Of a DNA stretch of 64,000 nt, positions 19,461 to 50,603 are shown in pieces (within the stretch, counting starts at the first letter, position 1; the number at the start of each line of letters is the position of its first letter). The stretch spans positions 1,707 to 65,706 of the forward strand of contig JASFHL010000006.1 of NCBI GenBank assembly GCA_050123235.1, given 5' to 3'. A program made the translations under genes and the position numbers. Under the pieces are notes generated by a model. The model was not told the origin of the DNA and searched no databases. It saw only the letters and a list, made by a program, of their open reading frames with translations. This DNA is from Candidatus Woesebacteria bacterium. Its GTDB lineage: Bacteria; Patescibacteriota; Microgenomatia; UBA1400; PJMF01.

Positions 19461-20537
19461 TTAATCAGCCACAACTCTTGGATCTAGAGCAGGCACATAG
19501 CCTAAGAAAGCATCATCGCCTTCAAAAACAAAAATGGGTTGTAAGTATTCTTGCTCTACAAAAGAATCAAAATAAGCTAAGTAAACATTTCTAATCACAG
19601 CTTCTTCCAATTTTTGATCACTTAAAGTAAAACCCTCCCCAGCTTGTAATAATTTCCAGGCCTCCTGAGGACTTCTTAAAGGATAAGTTTCAACTGTCAA
19701 GTAATCAATTGCCTGGTAATTATACTCCATCTGTAAAATAGCATCGTTTCCTCTTAAAACACCGGTAATGATAGCCGTAATTGTTCCTTTATACCCCCCA
19801 GGGGTATACATTCTAAATTCACCATCAATAGGATAGCGGTTAAGATCAACTTTCACAAAATCTGCATCCGACAAAGACACAGCTTCTTCCAATTCTGAGC
19901 CTAATGATTTCAAATAACTAATATCACCTGAACTAGTAGCCACATCTTCTGGTAACAAATTAGCTGATCTTAAAAAAGTTTTTAGCAAATTAACTGATTC
20001 AAAGTCATCTGGCAAATTTTTATTCAAAATTAAATCTGGTCTAGACAAATAATCAGTTTTAAAAACAAAATGCATATTTTGAATATCCAAATCAAAAGTA
20101 GATTCCAAAGGTTCTGATCTAGTCCAACGATAAGTTCTTTCATCTAAAACTTGAGGTTCAAAAACAAAATTGTATATCTGAGCCACTCTTCTTGCTTCTT
20201 GATCTGCTAACAAGCTAGGAGCGGACTTTAGAGCTAAAAATACCTTGGCTCTATCACCAAATGAAGGAAAACTAGCTGTTGCTAATTCTAAACGATATGA
20301 TTTTGGCACTTGATCTGGATCCTGTTCGGGAAAGACAATGGCTGGTAGTTTCCCAAAACCCATAGTCGGAGGGGGGGGTGGTTCTGGATGTATAGCTTTC
20401 CAAAAAGAAATAAAAGCAGATAAAAACATTCTGCCCACAATTAAAACAACTAAAGTGATAATGCTAAATTTGATAGTTTGTCTACCAATTCTAGCTACAT
20501 TGGTTAAAGTTGGGGCAGAAGAATCAGTAGCTGGCAT
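19461..20537 (-). CDS. hypothetical N-terminally anchored extracytoplasmic protein
   Basis: One N-terminal TM followed by a PPPPP linker. Contains a G8/C8 homopolymer in the coding sequence. Confidence 0.4.
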   Translation of the reverse strand: MPATDSSAPTLTNVARIGRQTIKFSIITLVVLIVGRMFLSAFISFWKAIHPEPPPPPTMGFGKLPAIVFPEQDPDQVPKSYRLELATASFPSFGDRAKVFLALKSAPSLLADQEARRVAQIYNFVFEPQVLDERTYRWTRSEPLESTFDLDIQNMHFVFKTDYLSRPDLILNKNLPDDFESVNLLKTFLRSANLLPEDVATSSGDISYLKSLGSELEEAVSLSDADFVKVDLNRYPIDGEFRMYTPGGYKGTITAIITGVLRGNDAILQMEYNYQAIDYLTVETYPLRSPQEAWKLLQAGEGFTLSDQKLEEAVIRNVYLAYFDSFVEQEYLQPIFVFEGDDAFLGYVPALDPRVVAD

Positions 20538-40549: not shown

Positions 40550-41890
40550 TTACAGACCTCTTACCAAGATCGCATCAACTACTCGTTTTACAGCTGTCAT
40601 ATAAGTAGCCATTCTGCCATCAACTTGATGTTTTTCCTTTGTCTGCCACATTTCAGCAAAAGCCTTTTCCATCATTGGTTTGAGTCTATCTAAAACTTCT
40701 TTTTTAGTCCAATAGAAACTTTGCAGGTTCTGCACCCATTCAAAATATGAAACAGTTACTCCGCCTGCATTAGCCAAAATATCGGGAACAACTAAAATAT
40801 CCTTTTTAGCTAAAATCTGATCAGCTTCAGGAGTAAGCGGGCCATTGGCTAATTCAATAATAGCCTTAGCTTTGATTTTGTTAGCATTTTCTTTAGTAAT
40901 TACATTTTCCAAAGCAGCTGGTACTAAAATATCAACATCTAATTCCAAGAGTTCTTGGTTACTAATTTGTTTACCATTATTTAGATCACACTTTTCATGA
41001 GAACAAAGACAATTTGCCACTTTGCCTTTTTTTTGTTTGCAATCTAAAGTTTTTTGAGGAGCTAATCCCTGCTCCACATAAACTCCTCCTTTAGAATCTG
41101 AAACAGCCACCACTTTGTAGCCCAAATCATCAGCGTGTTTGGCAAACCAAAAACCCACATTACCAAAACCTTGGATAGCAATACTGACGTCTTTTTTACG
41201 TTTAATTCCCAATGCTTGTACTAGTGCTTCCAAAATATAAACTCCACCTAGACCAGTGGCTTCTTCACGCCCTTCAGAGCCACCTAGTGTCAGTGGTTTA
41301 CCAGTGAAAGTAGCCCAAGGATTAACTTGCAAGCTAGAAGCGCAGCAACAGCCACATTTTTCTTCTGCACAGGGCTTTGTTTTTCTAATTTTTTGATATT
41401 CATCTACCATCCAAGCCATGATTTGACCATTGGTATTGACGTCTGGAGCTGGCACATCTACCCAAGGACCTATATTATTAGCAATAAAACAAGCATAAGC
41501 GCGACTCAATCTCTCTAATTCAGTTTCGCTTAATTTTTTAGGATCAACGATCACACCTCCCTTACCGCCACCATAGGGGATACCAGTAACTGCGCATTTC
41601 CAAGTCATCCAAGTTGACAAGGCCTTAACTTCGTCTATAGTCACATTGGGATGATAACGAATACCACCCTTATAAGGACCACGAGCATTATTATGTTGGG
41701 AGCGATAAGCTTTAAATTTTTTTGTCTTGCCATTATCCATCTTAACTTCCAGCTCAGTCTCTAATAATTTTTCAGGTTCTTTTAATTTTTTAATTGCTCG
41801 CTCAAATTTTTTCTTATCTTGGTATTGGGGCTTAAGTAATTTGGCAACAGCCTCTAGTTGTTTAATAGCGTTGGCATGTAGATTTGACAT
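40550..41890 (-). CDS. gdhA: NAD(P)-glutamate dehydrogenase with two cysteine-rich insertions
   Basis: KGGIRYHP and GIPYGGGKGG motifs. Insertions KPCAEEKCGCCCASS and DCKQKKGKVANCLCSHEKCD. Confidence 0.9.
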   Translation of the reverse strand: MSNLHANAIKQLEAVAKLLKPQYQDKKKFERAIKKLKEPEKLLETELEVKMDNGKTKKFKAYRSQHNNARGPYKGGIRYHPNVTIDEVKALSTWMTWKCAVTGIPYGGGKGGVIVDPKKLSETELERLSRAYACFIANNIGPWVDVPAPDVNTNGQIMAWMVDEYQKIRKTKPCAEEKCGCCCASSLQVNPWATFTGKPLTLGGSEGREEATGLGGVYILEALVQALGIKRKKDVSIAIQGFGNVGFWFAKHADDLGYKVVAVSDSKGGVYVEQGLAPQKTLDCKQKKGKVANCLCSHEKCDLNNGKQISNQELLELDVDILVPAALENVITKENANKIKAKAIIELANGPLTPEADQILAKKDILVVPDILANAGGVTVSYFEWVQNLQSFYWTKKEVLDRLKPMMEKAFAEMWQTKEKHQVDGRMATYMTAVKRVVDAILVRGL

Positions 41891-41996: not shown

Positions 41997-42030
41997 AGTA
42001 TACCCCCGGGGGGTATGTGAGTCAAGCTTC
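41997..42030 (-). promoter_or_regulatory. gdhA promoter TTGACT-N17-TATACT with the ATACCCCC-G-GGGGGTAT palindrome (CsoR/RcnR-type operator) in the spacer
   Basis: Reverse complement of plus 41995-42027 reads gcTTGACTcacataccccccgggggTATACT. Palindrome at plus 42002-42018. Confidence 0.5.
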
Positions 42031-45694: not shown

Positions 45695-46710
45695 GGGTTT
45701 ACGATTTTGACTAATACTTTAGCTAATTTATAGGCATCATGACGTAATAAAGTTCTAATAACAGTATCACTTTTATTTTGTTGAATCAGAGACTTAGAAA
45801 GTAACTTTGCTTTGATAATCTGGCTTTGCTCCAAATTAACTAAATCATCTCTTATCGGAAACTCTTTGCAGCGAGCATATCTTGCAGCTAAATCTGCTGG
45901 CATCTGCTCAGAATTTAAAATAACTATATCTGGTCTTCTGCCACAGTATCTGATCACTTCTGTTAGGTGATCCTTGGCAGTCATTTTATGTGTCTGCGCA
46001 TAATGCGTCATCAGATTGACAATATAAACAAACTTTCCTTTATTCTCTTTCAGAGCTGCTTTGAAACCTTTGGGCAAAGCATTAACCAAAAGACTAGCAT
46101 ATAAATCACCTGGTCCTAAAATAATCATATCTGCCGATTCGATGGCTGCAGCTGCTTTTTTATAAATCTGACTCTTTGGTTCAAGTTCTATTTTAGTAAT
46201 TCTCTTACCTCCATAACGACTATCATCTAAAGTGTGTTCGCCAATATTAATAGTCCCATCTTGGTAATGAATCTTCAAACTAGTGTCTTTTTCTGTAATC
46301 GGATAAACTCGGCCATTAATTCTAAAGATACGAGCAGCTGTTTCTATTGCTTGAGCAGGAGAATTACTTAAATATTCAAGAGCAGTTAAGATCAGATTGC
46401 CCAGATTATGTCCTTTAAGACCATTGCCTTTATTAAAACGATAAAGTAATAAGTTTCTGATATCTTCCTGATATCGGCCATCAGCTAAAGCGGCCAAACA
46501 CTGTCTCAAATCACCGACTGCTAAAAAACCAAATTCATCACGCAATCTGCCAGTCGATCCACCTGAATCAAAAACCGCCACAATGGCAGTTAGATCAAGC
46601 TTTGCCTCATTCTTAAGCCCTGAGAGAACCACTGAAGTGCCTGTTCCTCCACCAATGACTACTACTTTCTTTTTACGAACTTTTTTTACCATACCAGACA
46701 AGTATAGCAA
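45691..46710 (-). CDS. YvcK / gluconeogenesis-factor (CofD-like, UPF0052) family protein
   Basis: VVIGGGTGTSVVLSGLK and FDSGGSTGRLRDEFG motifs. Confidence 0.75.
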   Translation of the reverse strand: MLYLSGMVKKVRKKKVVVIGGGTGTSVVLSGLKNEAKLDLTAIVAVFDSGGSTGRLRDEFGFLAVGDLRQCLAALADGRYQEDIRNLLLYRFNKGNGLKGHNLGNLILTALEYLSNSPAQAIETAARIFRINGRVYPITEKDTSLKIHYQDGTINIGEHTLDDSRYGGKRITKIELEPKSQIYKKAAAAIESADMIILGPGDLYASLLVNALPKGFKAALKENKGKFVYIVNLMTHYAQTHKMTAKDHLTEVIRYCGRRPDIVILNSEQMPADLAARYARCKEFPIRDDLVNLEQSQIIKAKLLSKSLIQQNKSDTVIRTLLRHDAYKLAKVLVKIVNP

Positions 46711-46736
46711 ATTTTAAAAAAAAAGGAGATGTGAAC

Positions 46737-47795
46737 TCAGCTTTCTAGCCAAGCTTCTGCATCTAAGGCTGCGCTACAACCTTGACCAGCTGCAGTAATG
46801 GCTTGTTTATAACGCAAATCAACAACATCGCCTGCAGCAAACACGCCTTCTACTGAAGTCATGCTGGGGTAATCAACTAGACCATTTTTATTTAAAGCTT
46901 GTTTAGCTTTTTCTAAACCAGCTTTGGAAAGACTTAAGCGGGTGATCAAATATTTTTTTTCATCCATTTCTAGCTGTCCTGCAAAAATCTCAGTCACTGG
47001 TCGATGGCCGATGGCCAAAAAGACTCCATCTGCTGTCAATTTTTGTATTTTGCCATTTATTTTAATTTTTATTTTTTCAACTTTATCTTGACCCAGCACT
47101 TCTTTAAGATTGCTATTCCATAAAACCTCAATCTTAGGATGCTTAAGAACTCGATCTTGCATAATTTTGCTGGCTCTAAATCTATCTCTGCGATGAATAA
47201 TATGAACTTCTTTGGCAAACTTAGTTAAAGCCAAAGCATCTTCCATAGCAGTATCACCCCCACCCACTACATAGACTTTTTTGTCTTTATAAAAGGCAGC
47301 GTCACAAACAGCACAAGTGCTAAGACCTCTACCTAAAAATTTTTGTTCTCCTGGAATACCTAACATGATCGAAGTAGCTCCAGTGCAAACAATCACTGCC
47401 TCGGGTTCAATGTCATGCTTTTTCTTTTTTATTTTAGCAGTCAAAGCTAGGATTTTTTCAGACTTAGCTTTTTTATAAAAATCATAAGCTGTACTTTCTG
47501 GTAAGCTAGTCCAAAGTTTGAAAGGTCTTTTTTTAAAATCAACAGCTGTCACTAGTTGGTCAACAATTTGAGTTTCAAAATGTTCTGCTTGCTGACGTAA
47601 GCTCATCATGAATTCAGGACCTTGAATTCCTTTAGGAAAGCCAGGAAAATTTTCAAGTTCAGTGGTATACATTAGTTGACCACCGCTTTCGAGGCCAGTG
47701 AAAAGTATGGGTTTCAGTTTTGCGCGAGCTGCATAAATAGCGGCTGTGTAGCCAGCAGGCCCAGAACCGATGATTGCCAATTTTGTTTTGATCAT
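46737..47795 (-). CDS. trxB: thioredoxin-disulfide reductase
   Basis: GSGPAGYTAA FAD motif and CAVCD redox centre. Confidence 0.85.
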   Translation of the reverse strand: MIKTKLAIIGSGPAGYTAAIYAARAKLKPILFTGLESGGQLMYTTELENFPGFPKGIQGPEFMMSLRQQAEHFETQIVDQLVTAVDFKKRPFKLWTSLPESTAYDFYKKAKSEKILALTAKIKKKKHDIEPEAVIVCTGATSIMLGIPGEQKFLGRGLSTCAVCDAAFYKDKKVYVVGGGDTAMEDALALTKFAKEVHIIHRRDRFRASKIMQDRVLKHPKIEVLWNSNLKEVLGQDKVEKIKIKINGKIQKLTADGVFLAIGHRPVTEIFAGQLEMDEKKYLITRLSLSKAGLEKAKQALNKNGLVDYPSMTSVEGVFAAGDVVDLRYKQAITAAGQGCSAALDAEAWLES

Positions 47796-47826
47796 AAGAT
47801 TAATTTATTAGTTAAAGTATTTGAGT

Positions 47827-48003
47827 GAATCTCTAAAATATTATTATATATAAATCTTGCACACGTTCGCTGCAACATTTTATTTTTGTTTTAGATACAA
47901 GGCTCACTCGGTGAAGCTCGGTAGTAGATGAATTGCTAGCTCGAATCTAGCCAGACCTCGCTTCAACGGTAAAGATTTATATATAATAATATTTTAGAGA
48001 TTC
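47827..48003. repeat. perfect 32-bp inverted repeat (47827-47858 / 47972-48003) enclosing a 113-nt GC-richer core between trxA and trxB; the core is copy C of the 3'-UTR repeat family
   Basis: Arm gaatctctaaaatattattatatataaatctt and its exact reverse complement. Confidence 0.6.
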
Positions 48004-48033
48004 TAATCAAAGCACTAACTAATTAAACATTTA

Positions 48034-48381
48034 TTAATCTAAAACTCCCTCAATCATGGCTTTTAAGCCGGCTTCACCTGGAAAACCTACTTGTCGTTTT
48101 ACTTCTTTGATCTTTTTTCCATCAGCTTCAAAAATAATAACAGTAGGAATACTCATCACACCATATTCTTTAGCAGTAGTTTGATTTTCATCAACATTGA
48201 CTTTAACAATCATAATTTTATCTTTATATTCATCAGCTAATTTATCAATGATAGGGGCTGCCATTTGACAAGGCCCACACCAATCAGCATAAAAATCAAC
48301 CATTACTGGCTTGCCTGCTTTTTGAATACTTTGTTTAAAGTTATCATCATTTAGATGAGCTGCGCCTTTTTTGTCTGCCAT
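48034..48381 (-). CDS. trxA: thioredoxin
   Basis: WCGPC active site. Confidence 0.9.
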   Translation of the reverse strand: MADKKGAAHLNDDNFKQSIQKAGKPVMVDFYADWCGPCQMAAPIIDKLADEYKDKIMIVKVNVDENQTTAKEYGVMSIPTVIIFEADGKKIKEVKRQVGFPGEAGLKAMIEGVLD

Positions 48382-48410
48382 AAATCTCCTTTACAAAAAT
48401 TTATAAATCT

Positions 48411-48704
48411 TTAATATCTAAAAATCTCTTTTAAAATTTGATCTAGTTGTTTTATATTTCGTTCCTTGGAACAACGACTTGCTTCATTGCTTAGCAAATC
48501 TCTAGCCACTCTACCTAAAGAATTACGAGCTGCAATTACTTGTCTCACAATATCAATGCACATTCTTTCATCTTCATACATTTTAATCAAGCCGTCGATT
48601 TGACCTCTAATTCTTCTCAGTTGCTGAGCAACTTTGTCTTCTGTTTTATCTTTAGAGATTATAGAAATTTTTTTTAATTTTTTGTTTCGCTTTACTCGTG
48701 ACAT
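48411..48704 (-). CDS. CsoR/RcnR/FrmR-family (DUF156) metal/redox-sensing transcriptional repressor
   Basis: 97-aa protein with LRRIRGQIDGLIKMYEDERMCIDIVRQV...RC. The sensor positions read Cys...Asn...Cys rather than Cys-His-Cys. Confidence 0.7.
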   Translation of the reverse strand: MSRVKRNKKLKKISIISKDKTEDKVAQQLRRIRGQIDGLIKMYEDERMCIDIVRQVIAARNSLGRVARDLLSNEASRCSKERNIKQLDQILKEIFRY

Positions 48705-48709
48705 ATTAT

Positions 48710-48742
48710 TTTAATATACCCCCTGGGGGTATGTTAAGTCAA
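48710..48742 (-). promoter_or_regulatory. promoter of the CsoR-family gene, TTGACT-N18-TATATT, with the ATACCCCC-T-GGGGGTAT operator overlapping spacer and -10; -10 is ~8 nt from the ATG (leaderless)
   Basis: Reverse complement of plus 48705-48742 reads TTGACTtaacatacccccagggggTATATTaaaataat, followed by ATG. Confidence 0.5.
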
Positions 48743-48755
48743 GTAGATCTTTCTA

Positions 48756-50603
48756 TCAATTTTTGATTTGATTCTGTAATTTAACAATTAATTCCAACAG
48801 ATCATTTAATCTGGTCTCCTCTTCTTCTGTTTTTTTTAATTTTTTATCAAGTTCTTCAATTTGAGCATTGATTTTGTTGATTTTTCTTCTGATTAATTCT
48901 TTTTTTAATAAATTAAAAACTCGATTCCATTCTTGATCAACTTTTAATTGATCCAATAAATCAAGATATTTGGGATTTAAATAAAAGTCAAACAGTTTTT
49001 CTTTTAAATCTTCAGCTAGAGTGTGAGCAAACTTATCTAAAACAAAATCAGTTTTAAAACTAATTATTTTTTTAATAATTTGCTGAGCACCTAATAAACT
49101 AAGCTCAAAATCTTTTAACAAGCAAGCTCTATCTTTAACTTTGCTTTGATCAGAGCGCAGTAACAAAAAAAATAAATACCTTTCTAGTTCTAATAGACTC
49201 TCACTTTCTCCTTCTGCTTTTTTTTGTGACGGTCTCCTGGCAATTTTACTGACAACGCTCTTTTTTTGTTTCTTAGATATTATTTTAAGATTAGCGCTAA
49301 TCCTAGTCATATCCTTCATCACTACCGCCTGTTTAACATTTAAAGCTTTAGCTAATTTAGCTAAATAATAATCTTGCTCAACTGCATGTTTAATCTTAAA
49401 TAAAACTGCTGCTAATTCATCCATAATTTTTCTTTTCCCTTCTGGCTTTTGGGGATCATGTTTATTTAAAACTACCCGTAGTAAAAACTCATAAATAGAG
49501 ATTGATTGTTTAGCTTTTTTACGCCAAAGGGATGCTTCAACGCTAGCTAGTTCATCAACATCTTTGTATTTTTTCCTATTGCTAACTTTTTTATTATCAG
49601 AATTATCATTTAAATCAATGATCCGTAACTCCAAACGACTGTCTTTTATTAAATCAATTGCTCTTCTACTAGCTTCAATGCCAGCATTATCAGTATCAAG
49701 ACAAAGCAAAACTTTATCAGCTACTCTTTCAAACAATTTAATTTGCTCTTTTGTTAAGGCTGAACCCTTAATTGCCACAATGTGATTGACATGAGCTTGT
49801 ACTGAAGAAATGACATCAAATTCCCCTTCACAAACAATTACTTCCTGTTTCTTCTTAATTTCGCGAAATAATTCACTAAAACCATAGAGCATCTGAGATT
49901 TATGATAGAGTAAAGTTTCAGGAGTGTTAATATATTTGGCCTCCTTAGCTGCTTTATCAAGTAAACGACCTGAAAAGCCAACAACTATACCTCGGTGATT
50001 TTTAAGAGGGAAAACTACTCTGGAACGAAAACGATCATAATAGCGACCAGTTTTGGTTTTGATGATTAAACCTGTTTTGAAAATTTCTTCCAAACTAAAT
50101 TTCTTTTTATGATGCAAATACTTGATCAAACCATCCCAACTATCCAGAGCAAATCCTAATTGAAATAATTTAATTGAATCTTGAGTAATACTTCTTTCTT
50201 TCAAATATGCTCTAGCTTTCTCTCCTCTTTGATGTTTAGTGAGTATATAGTGGTAATATTCTTTAGCTAAATTTAAAATTGCTAACAATCGTTCGCGTTC
50301 TTCATCATTACTGGAGCGCTTAAATTCTTTTAACTTAATGCCAGCCCGATCAGCTAATTGTTTCAAAGCTTCCAAAAAAGTCATGCCATCATATCTCTCC
50401 AAAAATTCGATCACATCACCACTTGCTCCACAACCAAAGCAACGAAAACGCTGAATATCTTCACTGACAAAGAAACTGGGAGTTTTTTCATTATGAAAGG
50501 GACAAAGGCCCTTATAACTACTACCTGCAGCTTTCAATTCCAAACGCTCAACAATAATATCAACAATATTATTAGCATCCTTGACTGTTTGGACTTGGGA
50601 CAT
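48756..50603 (-). CDS. dnaG: DNA primase
   Basis: CPFHNEKTPSF zinc finger and a Toprim domain. Confidence 0.9.
   Translation of the reverse strand: MSQVQTVKDANNIVDIIVERLELKAAGSSYKGLCPFHNEKTPSFFVSEDIQRFRCFGCGASGDVIEFLERYDGMTFLEALKQLADRAGIKLKEFKRSSNDEERERLLAILNLAKEYYHYILTKHQRGEKARAYLKERSITQDSIKLFQLGFALDSWDGLIKYLHHKKKFSLEEIFKTGLIIKTKTGRYYDRFRSRVVFPLKNHRGIVVGFSGRLLDKAAKEAKYINTPETLLYHKSQMLYGFSELFREIKKKQEVIVCEGEFDVISSVQAHVNHIVAIKGSALTKEQIKLFERVADKVLLCLDTDNAGIEASRRAIDLIKDSRLELRIIDLNDNSDNKKVSNRKKYKDVDELASVEASLWRKKAKQSISIYEFLLRVVLNKHDPQKPEGKRKIMDELAAVLFKIKHAVEQDYYLAKLAKALNVKQAVVMKDMTRISANLKIISKKQKKSVVSKIARRPSQKKAEGESESLLELERYLFFLLLRSDQSKVKDRACLLKDFELSLLGAQQIIKKIISFKTDFVLDKFAHTLAEDLKEKLFDFYLNPKYLDLLDQLKVDQEWNRVFNLLKKELIRRKINKINAQIEELDKKLKKTEEEETRLNDLLELIVKLQNQIKN

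Follow-up and report, generated by a model that had tools for sequence, protein, structure and literature searches.

The CsoR/RcnR family of repressors has been divided, in a sequence similarity network (SSN) of 32,476 members, into clusters for copper, nickel or cobalt, formaldehyde and persulfide, with clusters 6-9 uncharacterised and, as far as the main text of that study goes, no cluster linked to thioredoxin (PMC8643695). The persulfide sensor CstR crosslinks its two cysteines with persulfides, tetrathionate or H2O2, the reaction with H2O2 having been observed in vitro (PMC8643695), and disulfide-linked dimers of the CsoR-like regulator TTHA1953 lose DNA binding in vitro, while copper, nickel and cobalt do not release the reduced protein (PMC10318464). 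According to a 2024 review, no H2O2-specific sensor of the family has been characterised, which limits our grasp of oxidant specificity in this fold (PMC11672702). Here we analyse a putative repressor of this family encoded in a stretch of 64,000 nucleotides, hereafter the window, from a Candidatus Woesebacteria bacterium (assembly GCA_050123235.1, contig JASFHL010000006.1, positions 1,707 to 65,706; G+C content 34%), whose gene stands directly ahead of the genes for thioredoxin (trxA) and thioredoxin reductase (trxB). A literature search for CsoR-family control of trx genes, or for the CsoR family in Patescibacteria or the candidate phyla radiation (CPR), did not find this system described. 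To our knowledge, hardly anything has been demonstrated of how the ultra-small and mostly uncultured bacteria of the CPR regulate transcription.

The regulator is a 97-amino-acid protein (48411-48704, minus strand) that is 100% identical to MGD9129577.1 of a Candidatus Woesebacteria metagenome-assembled genome, and databases name it 'metal-sensitive transcriptional regulator' or 'FrmR family'. Open reading frame (ORF) coordinates on the minus strand give the order dnaG (48756-50603), regulator, trxA (48034-48381) and trxB (46737-47795), in agreement with an original prediction that was made from the letters of this stretch alone and had described a CsoR-family repressor followed by trxA and trxB; dnaG lies upstream of the three. 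The trxA gene starts 29 nt beyond the regulator stop codon, is preceded by an AGGAG Shine-Dalgarno sequence and encodes a WCGPC motif, and its product passes the NCBIfam equivalog TIGR01068 (119 bits, cut-off 96.8). TrxB is a low-Mr thioredoxin reductase with a CAVC active site and an NADPH-type motif, HRRDRFR, and passes the equivalog TIGR01292 (357 bits, cut-off 343). Relative to TIGR01292 it carries a Lys-rich insertion of about 33 residues (47400-47498, residues 100-132) that splits the match in two; TrxB of relatives is of similar length, about 350 residues.

The assignment to the CsoR/RcnR family (formerly DUF156) was borne out by a match to Pfam PF02583 with E=3e-17 (63.2 bits, cut-off 22.8) and by matches at E<=1e-3 to ten family members in the PDB, the best being GtCsoR (4m1p). 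A profile of the family matched GtCsoR at 2e-13 and both SpCstR and MtCsoR at 2e-12. Sensor positions were assigned by HMMER alignments to the solved structures, and residues were counted in 120 homologues of 60-100% identity. Cys49 and Cys78, 29 residues apart, align to the CsoR cysteine pair and are present in 120/120 homologues, and Glu74, present in 119/120, aligns to Mtb His61, to the corresponding GtCsoR histidine and to the wedge Asn55 of SpCstR. The original prediction had read the sensor as Cys...Asn...Cys and had called for an alignment to characterised family members; this alignment supports the family match and the cysteine pair, but the reading of Asn was one position off, given that the residue at the ligand position is Glu74 and Asn73 is variable (Asn in 49, Gly in 46 and Ser in 14 of the 120). 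The fingerprint is thus x-C-E-C. Exactly two cysteines are found in 108 of the homologues and no histidine at all in 99, and none of the 120 has a tyrosine directly before Cys49, residue 48 being mostly A, T, S, Q, G or V, and Met in the window.

Other classes within the family fit less well. The regulator scores below the NCBIfam cut-offs for RicR (48.8 bits against 175) and for FrmR (28.7 against 133); the Pro2, Cys35 and His60 features of FrmR are not found in it, its N-terminus (MSRV...) varying among relatives, and neither is the H-C-H-H or H-C-H-C fingerprint of RcnR, InrS and NreA, the tail being variable and most of the 120 members lacking histidine. On the DNA-contacting side, Arg31, which is the second Arg of the RLXR motif, and Gln55 in helix alpha2 are invariant (120/120) and are, in our own mapping, the equivalents of SlCsoR R57 and Q81; the first Arg of RLXR is Gln28 here. 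Mutation of either R57 or Q81 abolished DNA binding by SlCsoR (PMC3902906).

The promoter of the regulator consists of a -35 hexamer TTGACT (48742-48737), an 18-nt spacer and a -10 hexamer TATATT (48718-48713), followed after 8 nt by the ATG at 48704. A palindrome, ATACCCCC-N-GGGGGTAT (operator 1, 48716-48732), covers the spacer and the -10, so placed that its last bases are the first bases of the -10, and it forms a TAC-N9-GTA dyad around C5/G5 tracts; promoter and palindrome are thus where the original prediction had located them. The box defined for Streptomyces lividans CsoR has the consensus ATATACCCCTNAGGGGTATAT, its copZA sites contain TACCCCCTAGGGGTA, and any base swap in the TAC/GTA dyad abolished binding (PMC3902906). 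Judged by its letters, the operator here is essentially that S. lividans box. When the motif was searched with up to three mismatches, three sites were found in the 64 kb against 0.03 expected, and a position weight matrix (PWM) that was made from relatives only and then run on the window scored the same three sites at 33.3 (operator 1), 32.5 and 30.6, the next best in the 64 kb scoring 6.4. Random occurrence, raised in the original prediction as a possible objection, is therefore far from what the window displays. Two of the three sites are perfect copies (48716-48732 and 42000-42016) and share the same promoter architecture.

The layout is kept in relatives. A scan of GTDB species representatives yielded 24 close relatives, which all belong to the Patescibacteria in spite of a wrong label on some, together with 56 more distant ones. 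An operator lies directly upstream of the regulator in 24/24 of the close relatives, each time overlapping the -10, with the right half of ATACCCC-N3-GGGGTAT merging into the -10 (TAtatt), and each of these loci has a single operator, at the head of the operon. TTGAC is found at the position equivalent to that of the -35 in 22/24 relatives, mostly 16-18 nt from the -10. The claim of a CsoR-type operator is accordingly upheld by the orthologues as well as by the experimentally defined Streptomyces TAC-N9-GTA box, and we regard a repressor-operator pair as very probable on these comparative grounds. Start codons were scored in the window and in 23 relatives with an identifiable start (n=24): the first in-frame start past the -10 lies at 6-9 nt in 17 cases, at 11 nt in three, at 3 nt in one and at 22-63 nt in three, even though the non-conserved N-terminal tail of the family ranges from 10 to 34 residues. 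A start codon that stays fixed at the expected transcription start despite so variable a tail is what a conserved leaderless mRNA predicts; the regulator has no Shine-Dalgarno sequence, as opposed to AGGAG at trxA and AAGGA at gdh, the gene for glutamate dehydrogenase (GDH). The regulator transcript is thus probably leaderless, as had been proposed.

A metagenome scan with the combined promoter and operator pattern retrieved only one close relative; most of its other hits were CsoR genes from other phyla, with 30-47% identity. A TTGAC-N-TACCCC-N3-GGGGTAT promoter stands ahead of CsoR genes across many phyla, and their ATG is often no more than a few nucleotides beyond the -10; because of this breadth the operator and promoter layout must be considered ordinary for the family, the scan having added nothing to the regulon. 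Among its hits, a metagenome contig of 69% G+C (L123, 338-363) has a CsoR-type box with a TTGAC -35 directly before a trxB-like N-terminal fragment, on a contig too short to interpret.

What sets the locus apart is its gene content. The operon genes of the 24 close loci were identified by similarity to the window proteins and by Pfam as trxA, trxB, malic enzyme and gdh. The order dnaG, regulator, trxA, trxB is kept in 22-23 of them and is then followed by gdh in about 20, and a malic enzyme gene (PF00390 plus PF03949) comes after trxB in seven loci, in five of these between trxB and gdh. No rhodanese, persulfide dioxygenase, SQR, CoA-persulfide reductase or TauE was found in the 24 operons. 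The 56 distant relatives, from Firmicutes and further phyla and 35-50% identical, form a contrasting set, in which 55 have C-H-C and 54 of these have a tyrosine before the first cysteine. Within about 4 kb of the regulator, TrxA is encoded in 22/24 and TrxB in 23/24 of the x-C-E-C loci versus 0/56 of the distant relatives for either, whereas copA, a P-type ATPase with a CPC motif, and proteins with MxCxxC (HMA) are encoded near 35/56 and 37/56 of the distant relatives, respectively, versus 0/24 x-C-E-C loci; neither copA nor copZ was found near the regulator in any of the 24. In five of the close loci (L002, L007, L016, L021 and L022) the gene after gdh resembles, by eye and from its N-terminal sequence, an rpoD-type sigma factor; if so, dnaG and rpoD of the classical macromolecular-synthesis cluster would flank the redox operon.

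In the window, gdh (40550-41890, minus strand) is about 4.8 kb from trxB, with cofD-like, HAD, nucleotidyltransferase and glmS genes in between, whereas it follows trxB in most relatives. Operator 2, again ATACCCCC-N-GGGGGTAT (42000-42016, PWM 32.5), sits past the stop codon of glmS and ahead of gdh and is enclosed by a promoter on the minus strand, TTGACT (42025-42020)-N17-TATACT (42002-41997), from which a leader of roughly 100 nt extends to gdh with its AAGGA Shine-Dalgarno sequence. That the displaced gdh bears its own promoter and its own copy of the operator is good evidence, at the level of sequence, for a regulon wider than trxA-trxB that includes gdh. To name only trxA and trxB as downstream genes, as the original prediction did, is consequently incomplete.

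The x-C-E-C fingerprint extends well beyond these operons. When 1.84 billion representatives were searched exhaustively with a profile, 4113 proteins resembled the family. Of the best 149 short ones among them, 44 have C-E-C and 58 have C-H-C, with x-C-E-C accounting for nearly all of roughly the first 40. At 50% identity the subfamily falls into at least 44 clusters; more than 100 close homologues were retrieved, and those of them with a name are mostly from Patescibacteria. Eight distant x-C-E-C loci were fetched, two of them on contigs too short to use. In the six informative ones, genes for thiol-disulfide oxidoreductases follow the regulator in every case: four precede thioredoxin, three of these also having a TrxR-like flavoprotein gene that is followed by ferredoxin, by NUDIX, or by GDH and ferredoxin, and two precede a CcdA/DsbD-type membrane protein and a thioredoxin-like protein. 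Operators of the distant loci are of the ATACCC...GGGTAT or ATACT-N7-AGTAT type and abut or overlap the ATG. Those of L207, L208 and L215 belong to the latter type, with a G-rich centre, and are nearer to the type-1 site of RcnR, TACT-G6-N-AGTA, than to the TAC-N9-GTA of CsoR.

We postulate that the regulator works as a two-cysteine oxidation switch and holds down the thioredoxin system together with its presumed suppliers of NAD(P)H, a reading to which we give somewhat better than even chances. In the reduced state the regulator, expected to be an all-helical tetrameric repressor, would bind the TAC-N9-GTA operator over the spacer and the -10 of its own promoter and block RNA polymerase, which would keep transcription of regulator, trxA and trxB low, and the second copy of the operator would act likewise at gdh. 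The sensor would be the invariant Cys49/Cys78 pair, with Glu74 in place of the copper-binding His or of the wedge Asn of Firmicute CstR. In solved members of the family the two cysteine positions face each other across the subunit interface. Oxidation of the pair, by disulfide or peroxide stress or by reactive sulfur species, could yield an intersubunit disulfide or a sulfur-bridged link and release the DNA. Derepression would then supply more thioredoxin, more NADPH-type thioredoxin reductase and more of the dehydrogenases that could regenerate NAD(P)H, namely GDH in the window and GDH, malic enzyme or both in relatives, for which a role in NADPH supply is presumed, and the induced thioredoxin system would probably re-reduce the repressor and close a homeostatic loop. 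That the signal is thiol-based rather than metal-based we consider likely; as to its nature, general disulfide or peroxide stress and reactive sulfur are about evenly balanced.

A more specific proposal, which we find rather unlikely, is a persulfide sensor of the CstR type, in which reactive sulfur would trans-persulfidate the cysteine pair and thioredoxin would be induced to reduce protein persulfides. Many Patescibacteria inhabit sulfidic, anoxic places, which we count in its favour, and for the family profile SpCstR is as good a match as MtCsoR. The two-cysteine x-C-x-C fingerprint is also that of SSN clusters 3, 4 and 10, which were assigned to persulfide sensing (PMC8643695), and thioredoxin-like proteins of S. 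aureus are described as reducing protein persulfides (PMC6196236). The wedge Asn of the Firmicute x-C-N-C CstRs is nevertheless replaced by Glu in all but one of the homologues, and the 24 operons lack the persulfide-detoxification genes listed above. Chemistry alone cannot separate persulfide from oxidant sensing, because CstRs also react with H2O2 in vitro. The original prediction had proposed a thiol, persulfide or redox sensor of the CstR type rather than a copper sensor; a thiol or redox sensor is still the reading that we prefer, but the label 'CstR type' does not hold, given the missing wedge Asn and the absence of persulfide genes. It is far less probable that the palindromes are not protein sites at all but terminator hairpins of dnaG and glmS or repeated structural elements. 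Both intergenic copies do lie 24-28 nt past a stop codon, and each could form a 7-bp G+C stem; no U-tract follows them, however, a terminator scan made no call, and they fold no better than shuffled sequence (z = -0.9 and -1.3), for which reasons we rejected the terminator reading. Across relatives, moreover, the arms are kept as sequence (ATACCCC/GGGGTAT) and not through compensatory change, the element holds a fixed place relative to the -35 and -10 hexamers, and it both matches a biochemically defined CsoR box and accompanies CsoR genes in many phyla.

Sensing of a metal, either Cu(I) on the two thiolates or Zn, Fe or Cd on a Cys2-Glu site, with thioredoxin repairing metal-induced thiol damage, appears improbable. 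It would accord with the bona fide copper CsoRs being the nearest sequence relatives, with an operator that is the copper-CsoR box and with the databases calling the protein 'metal-sensitive', and both of the distant loci with a CcdA-type gene have a ZIP transporter gene upstream, one of them also a cupredoxin gene downstream. Set against this are the replacement of the copper-ligand His by Glu, the absence of a tyrosine before Cys49, the complete lack of histidine in 99/120 homologues, the scores below the RicR and FrmR cut-offs, and the neighbourhoods, in which no copA or HMA gene lies within 4 kb (0/24), against 35-37/56 for the C-H-C relatives; CstR, with the same cysteine pair, is not copper-responsive in cells (PMC8643695). 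The original statement that a copper sensor is unlikely is thereby supported, there being neither the His ligand nor the Tyr, and no copA or copZ nearby. The ZIP and cupredoxin neighbours still count against a two-cysteine oxidation switch, and several further points do so as well: metal binding by a Cys2-Glu site could occur in principle; a carboxylate beside the thiol does not obviously favour reactivity with peroxide; Glu74 is replaced by Ala in one close relative (L023); the AlphaFold2 (AF2) model of the regulator monomer is poor (one long helix, pTM 0.30; family members are obligate oligomers), for which reason we rely on homologues for the assumed geometry of Cys49-Cys78' and the assumed part played by Glu74; and in the window a hairpin of 223 nt parts trxA from trxB, which makes co-transcription of trxB uncertain there.

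With the oxidation switch still the preferred reading, a bolder extension of it can be offered tentatively. The x-C-E-C proteins may form an oxidant-specific (peroxide or disulfide) branch of the CsoR family that serves as a master thiol-redox regulator of many CPR bacteria or Patescibacteria, the Glu having converted a copper site into a redox site, and the thioredoxin, thioredoxin reductase and NAD(P)H module being what is switched on and what resets the regulator.

The hairpin just mentioned (47804-48026) fills the spacer between trxA and trxB. Its 55-nt arms include a perfect inverted copy of 30 nt, its 113-nt centre is richer in G+C, its minimum free energy is -72.6 kcal/mol (z = -9.1), and it occurs once in the window. 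Relatives are without it, their spacers measuring 14-118 nt with one exception of 525 nt, and Rfam and tRNA scans of 46000-49500 gave no match, which indicates that it is not a known RNA family; it looks like a lineage-specific insertion resembling a miniature inverted-repeat transposable element (MITE). The hairpin stops 8 nt short of the trxB ATG, and trxB has no Shine-Dalgarno sequence. Past trxB only a short gap, with no terminator predicted in it, precedes the cofD-like gene.

The third operator-grade site, ATACCCCCCAGGGGTAT (19791-19807, PWM 30.6), falls within a gene for a conserved hypothetical protein, some 340 nt upstream of gltX. The site is identical to the operators of two relatives (L007 and L021). 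In the window it encodes YTPGGY, and relatives keep the peptide, usually as YTPEGY, and not the DNA motif; the site uses rare codons (ACC, GGG GGG), with P ~5e-4 given the peptide and the codon usage of the genome. It could be either a lineage-specific extra site or a coincidence. An internal promoter at 19791 was considered and discarded: the hexamers TTAGAA and TATAAA are present in relatives too, owing to the conserved peptide FRMY..YKG, and since conservation of that peptide accounts for them they are no evidence of a promoter. The gene itself (19461-20537, minus strand) encodes a protein of 358 residues, hydrophobic in an N-terminal segment and without a match in Pfam, which has more than 800 homologues of 52-64% identity in Patescibacteria, with gltX directly downstream in 3/3 contigs of sufficient length; it is a conserved CPR protein without an assigned function.

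Some features of the gdh region also deserve mention. The GDH of the window has an insertion, PCAEEKCGCCCASS, which contains CGCCC and five cysteines in all (41333-41374, residues 173-186) and is found in this GDH only among 15 orthologues aligned. A second motif, C-X9-C-X-C-X4-C (40988-41041, residues 284-301), retains its four cysteines in 6/15 orthologues and the first two in 10/15, and might form a knuckle that binds metal or responds to redox state, in an enzyme that would be regulated together with thioredoxin. Downstream of gdh, the segment 39657-40538 resembles the gene for a nucleoside triphosphate (NTP)-transferase of the GalU-like type that adjoins gdh in L017, L018 and L023; in the window it is split into ORFs of 93 and 162 residues with a 111-nt gap, which may reflect a frameshift, a pseudogene or an assembly error.

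Taken together, the locus as originally described is largely correct and its interpretation right in outline, and the system described here is well supported by comparative genomics. It is probable that the database labels for the x-C-E-C subfamily (metal, copper or formaldehyde sensor) are wrong. The clade is a concrete candidate for the missing oxidant sensor of the family, one that should be easy to purify, with a defined operator and a His-to-Glu difference, and the triplet of regulator, operator and regulon, conserved in the group and including GDH or malic enzyme, would offer a testable picture of thiol redox balance in the CPR.

Compared with described systems, the sensor fingerprint and the putative regulon appear unusual for the family, and the operator and promoter layout of a known kind. 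The regulator resembles the copper CsoRs of SSN cluster 1 (x-C-H-C), such as BsCsoR, SlCsoR and GtCsoR, in its fold family, in the operator ATACCCC-N3-GGGGTAT, in the DNA-contact residues and in having an operator that overlaps the promoter of an autoregulated and often leaderless csoR gene; it differs from them in having Glu for His (119/120), no Tyr before the first cysteine, no copZA, and a predicted regulon of thioredoxin system and dehydrogenases. With CstR of S. aureus, E. faecalis and S. pneumoniae (x-C-N-C) it would share the character of a two-cysteine, non-metal repressor of the CsoR family, and the intersubunit Cys-Cys crosslinking that abolishes DNA binding by CstR (PMC8643695) is predicted here; unlike CstR, it has Glu for the wedge Asn, no sulfurtransferase or persulfide genes, and a profile similarity to SpCstR that is not above that to copper CsoRs. 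TTHA1953, which regulates sox genes in Thermus thermophilus, likewise has two cysteines 29 residues apart, but its operator is without a G/C tract and its targets are scattered sox genes rather than an adjacent trx operon. In the RsrA-sigmaR system of Streptomyces, in Spx of Bacillus and in OxyR, a cysteine-based sensor induces the thioredoxin system, which in turn reduces the sensor. The same logic of homeostatic feedback is what we propose for the regulator described here; these sensors come from protein families unrelated to it, however, and RsrA is an anti-sigma factor, Spx an activator that binds RNA polymerase and OxyR an activator of the LysR type, whereas in this case the switch would be a repressor of the CsoR fold that occludes the promoter.

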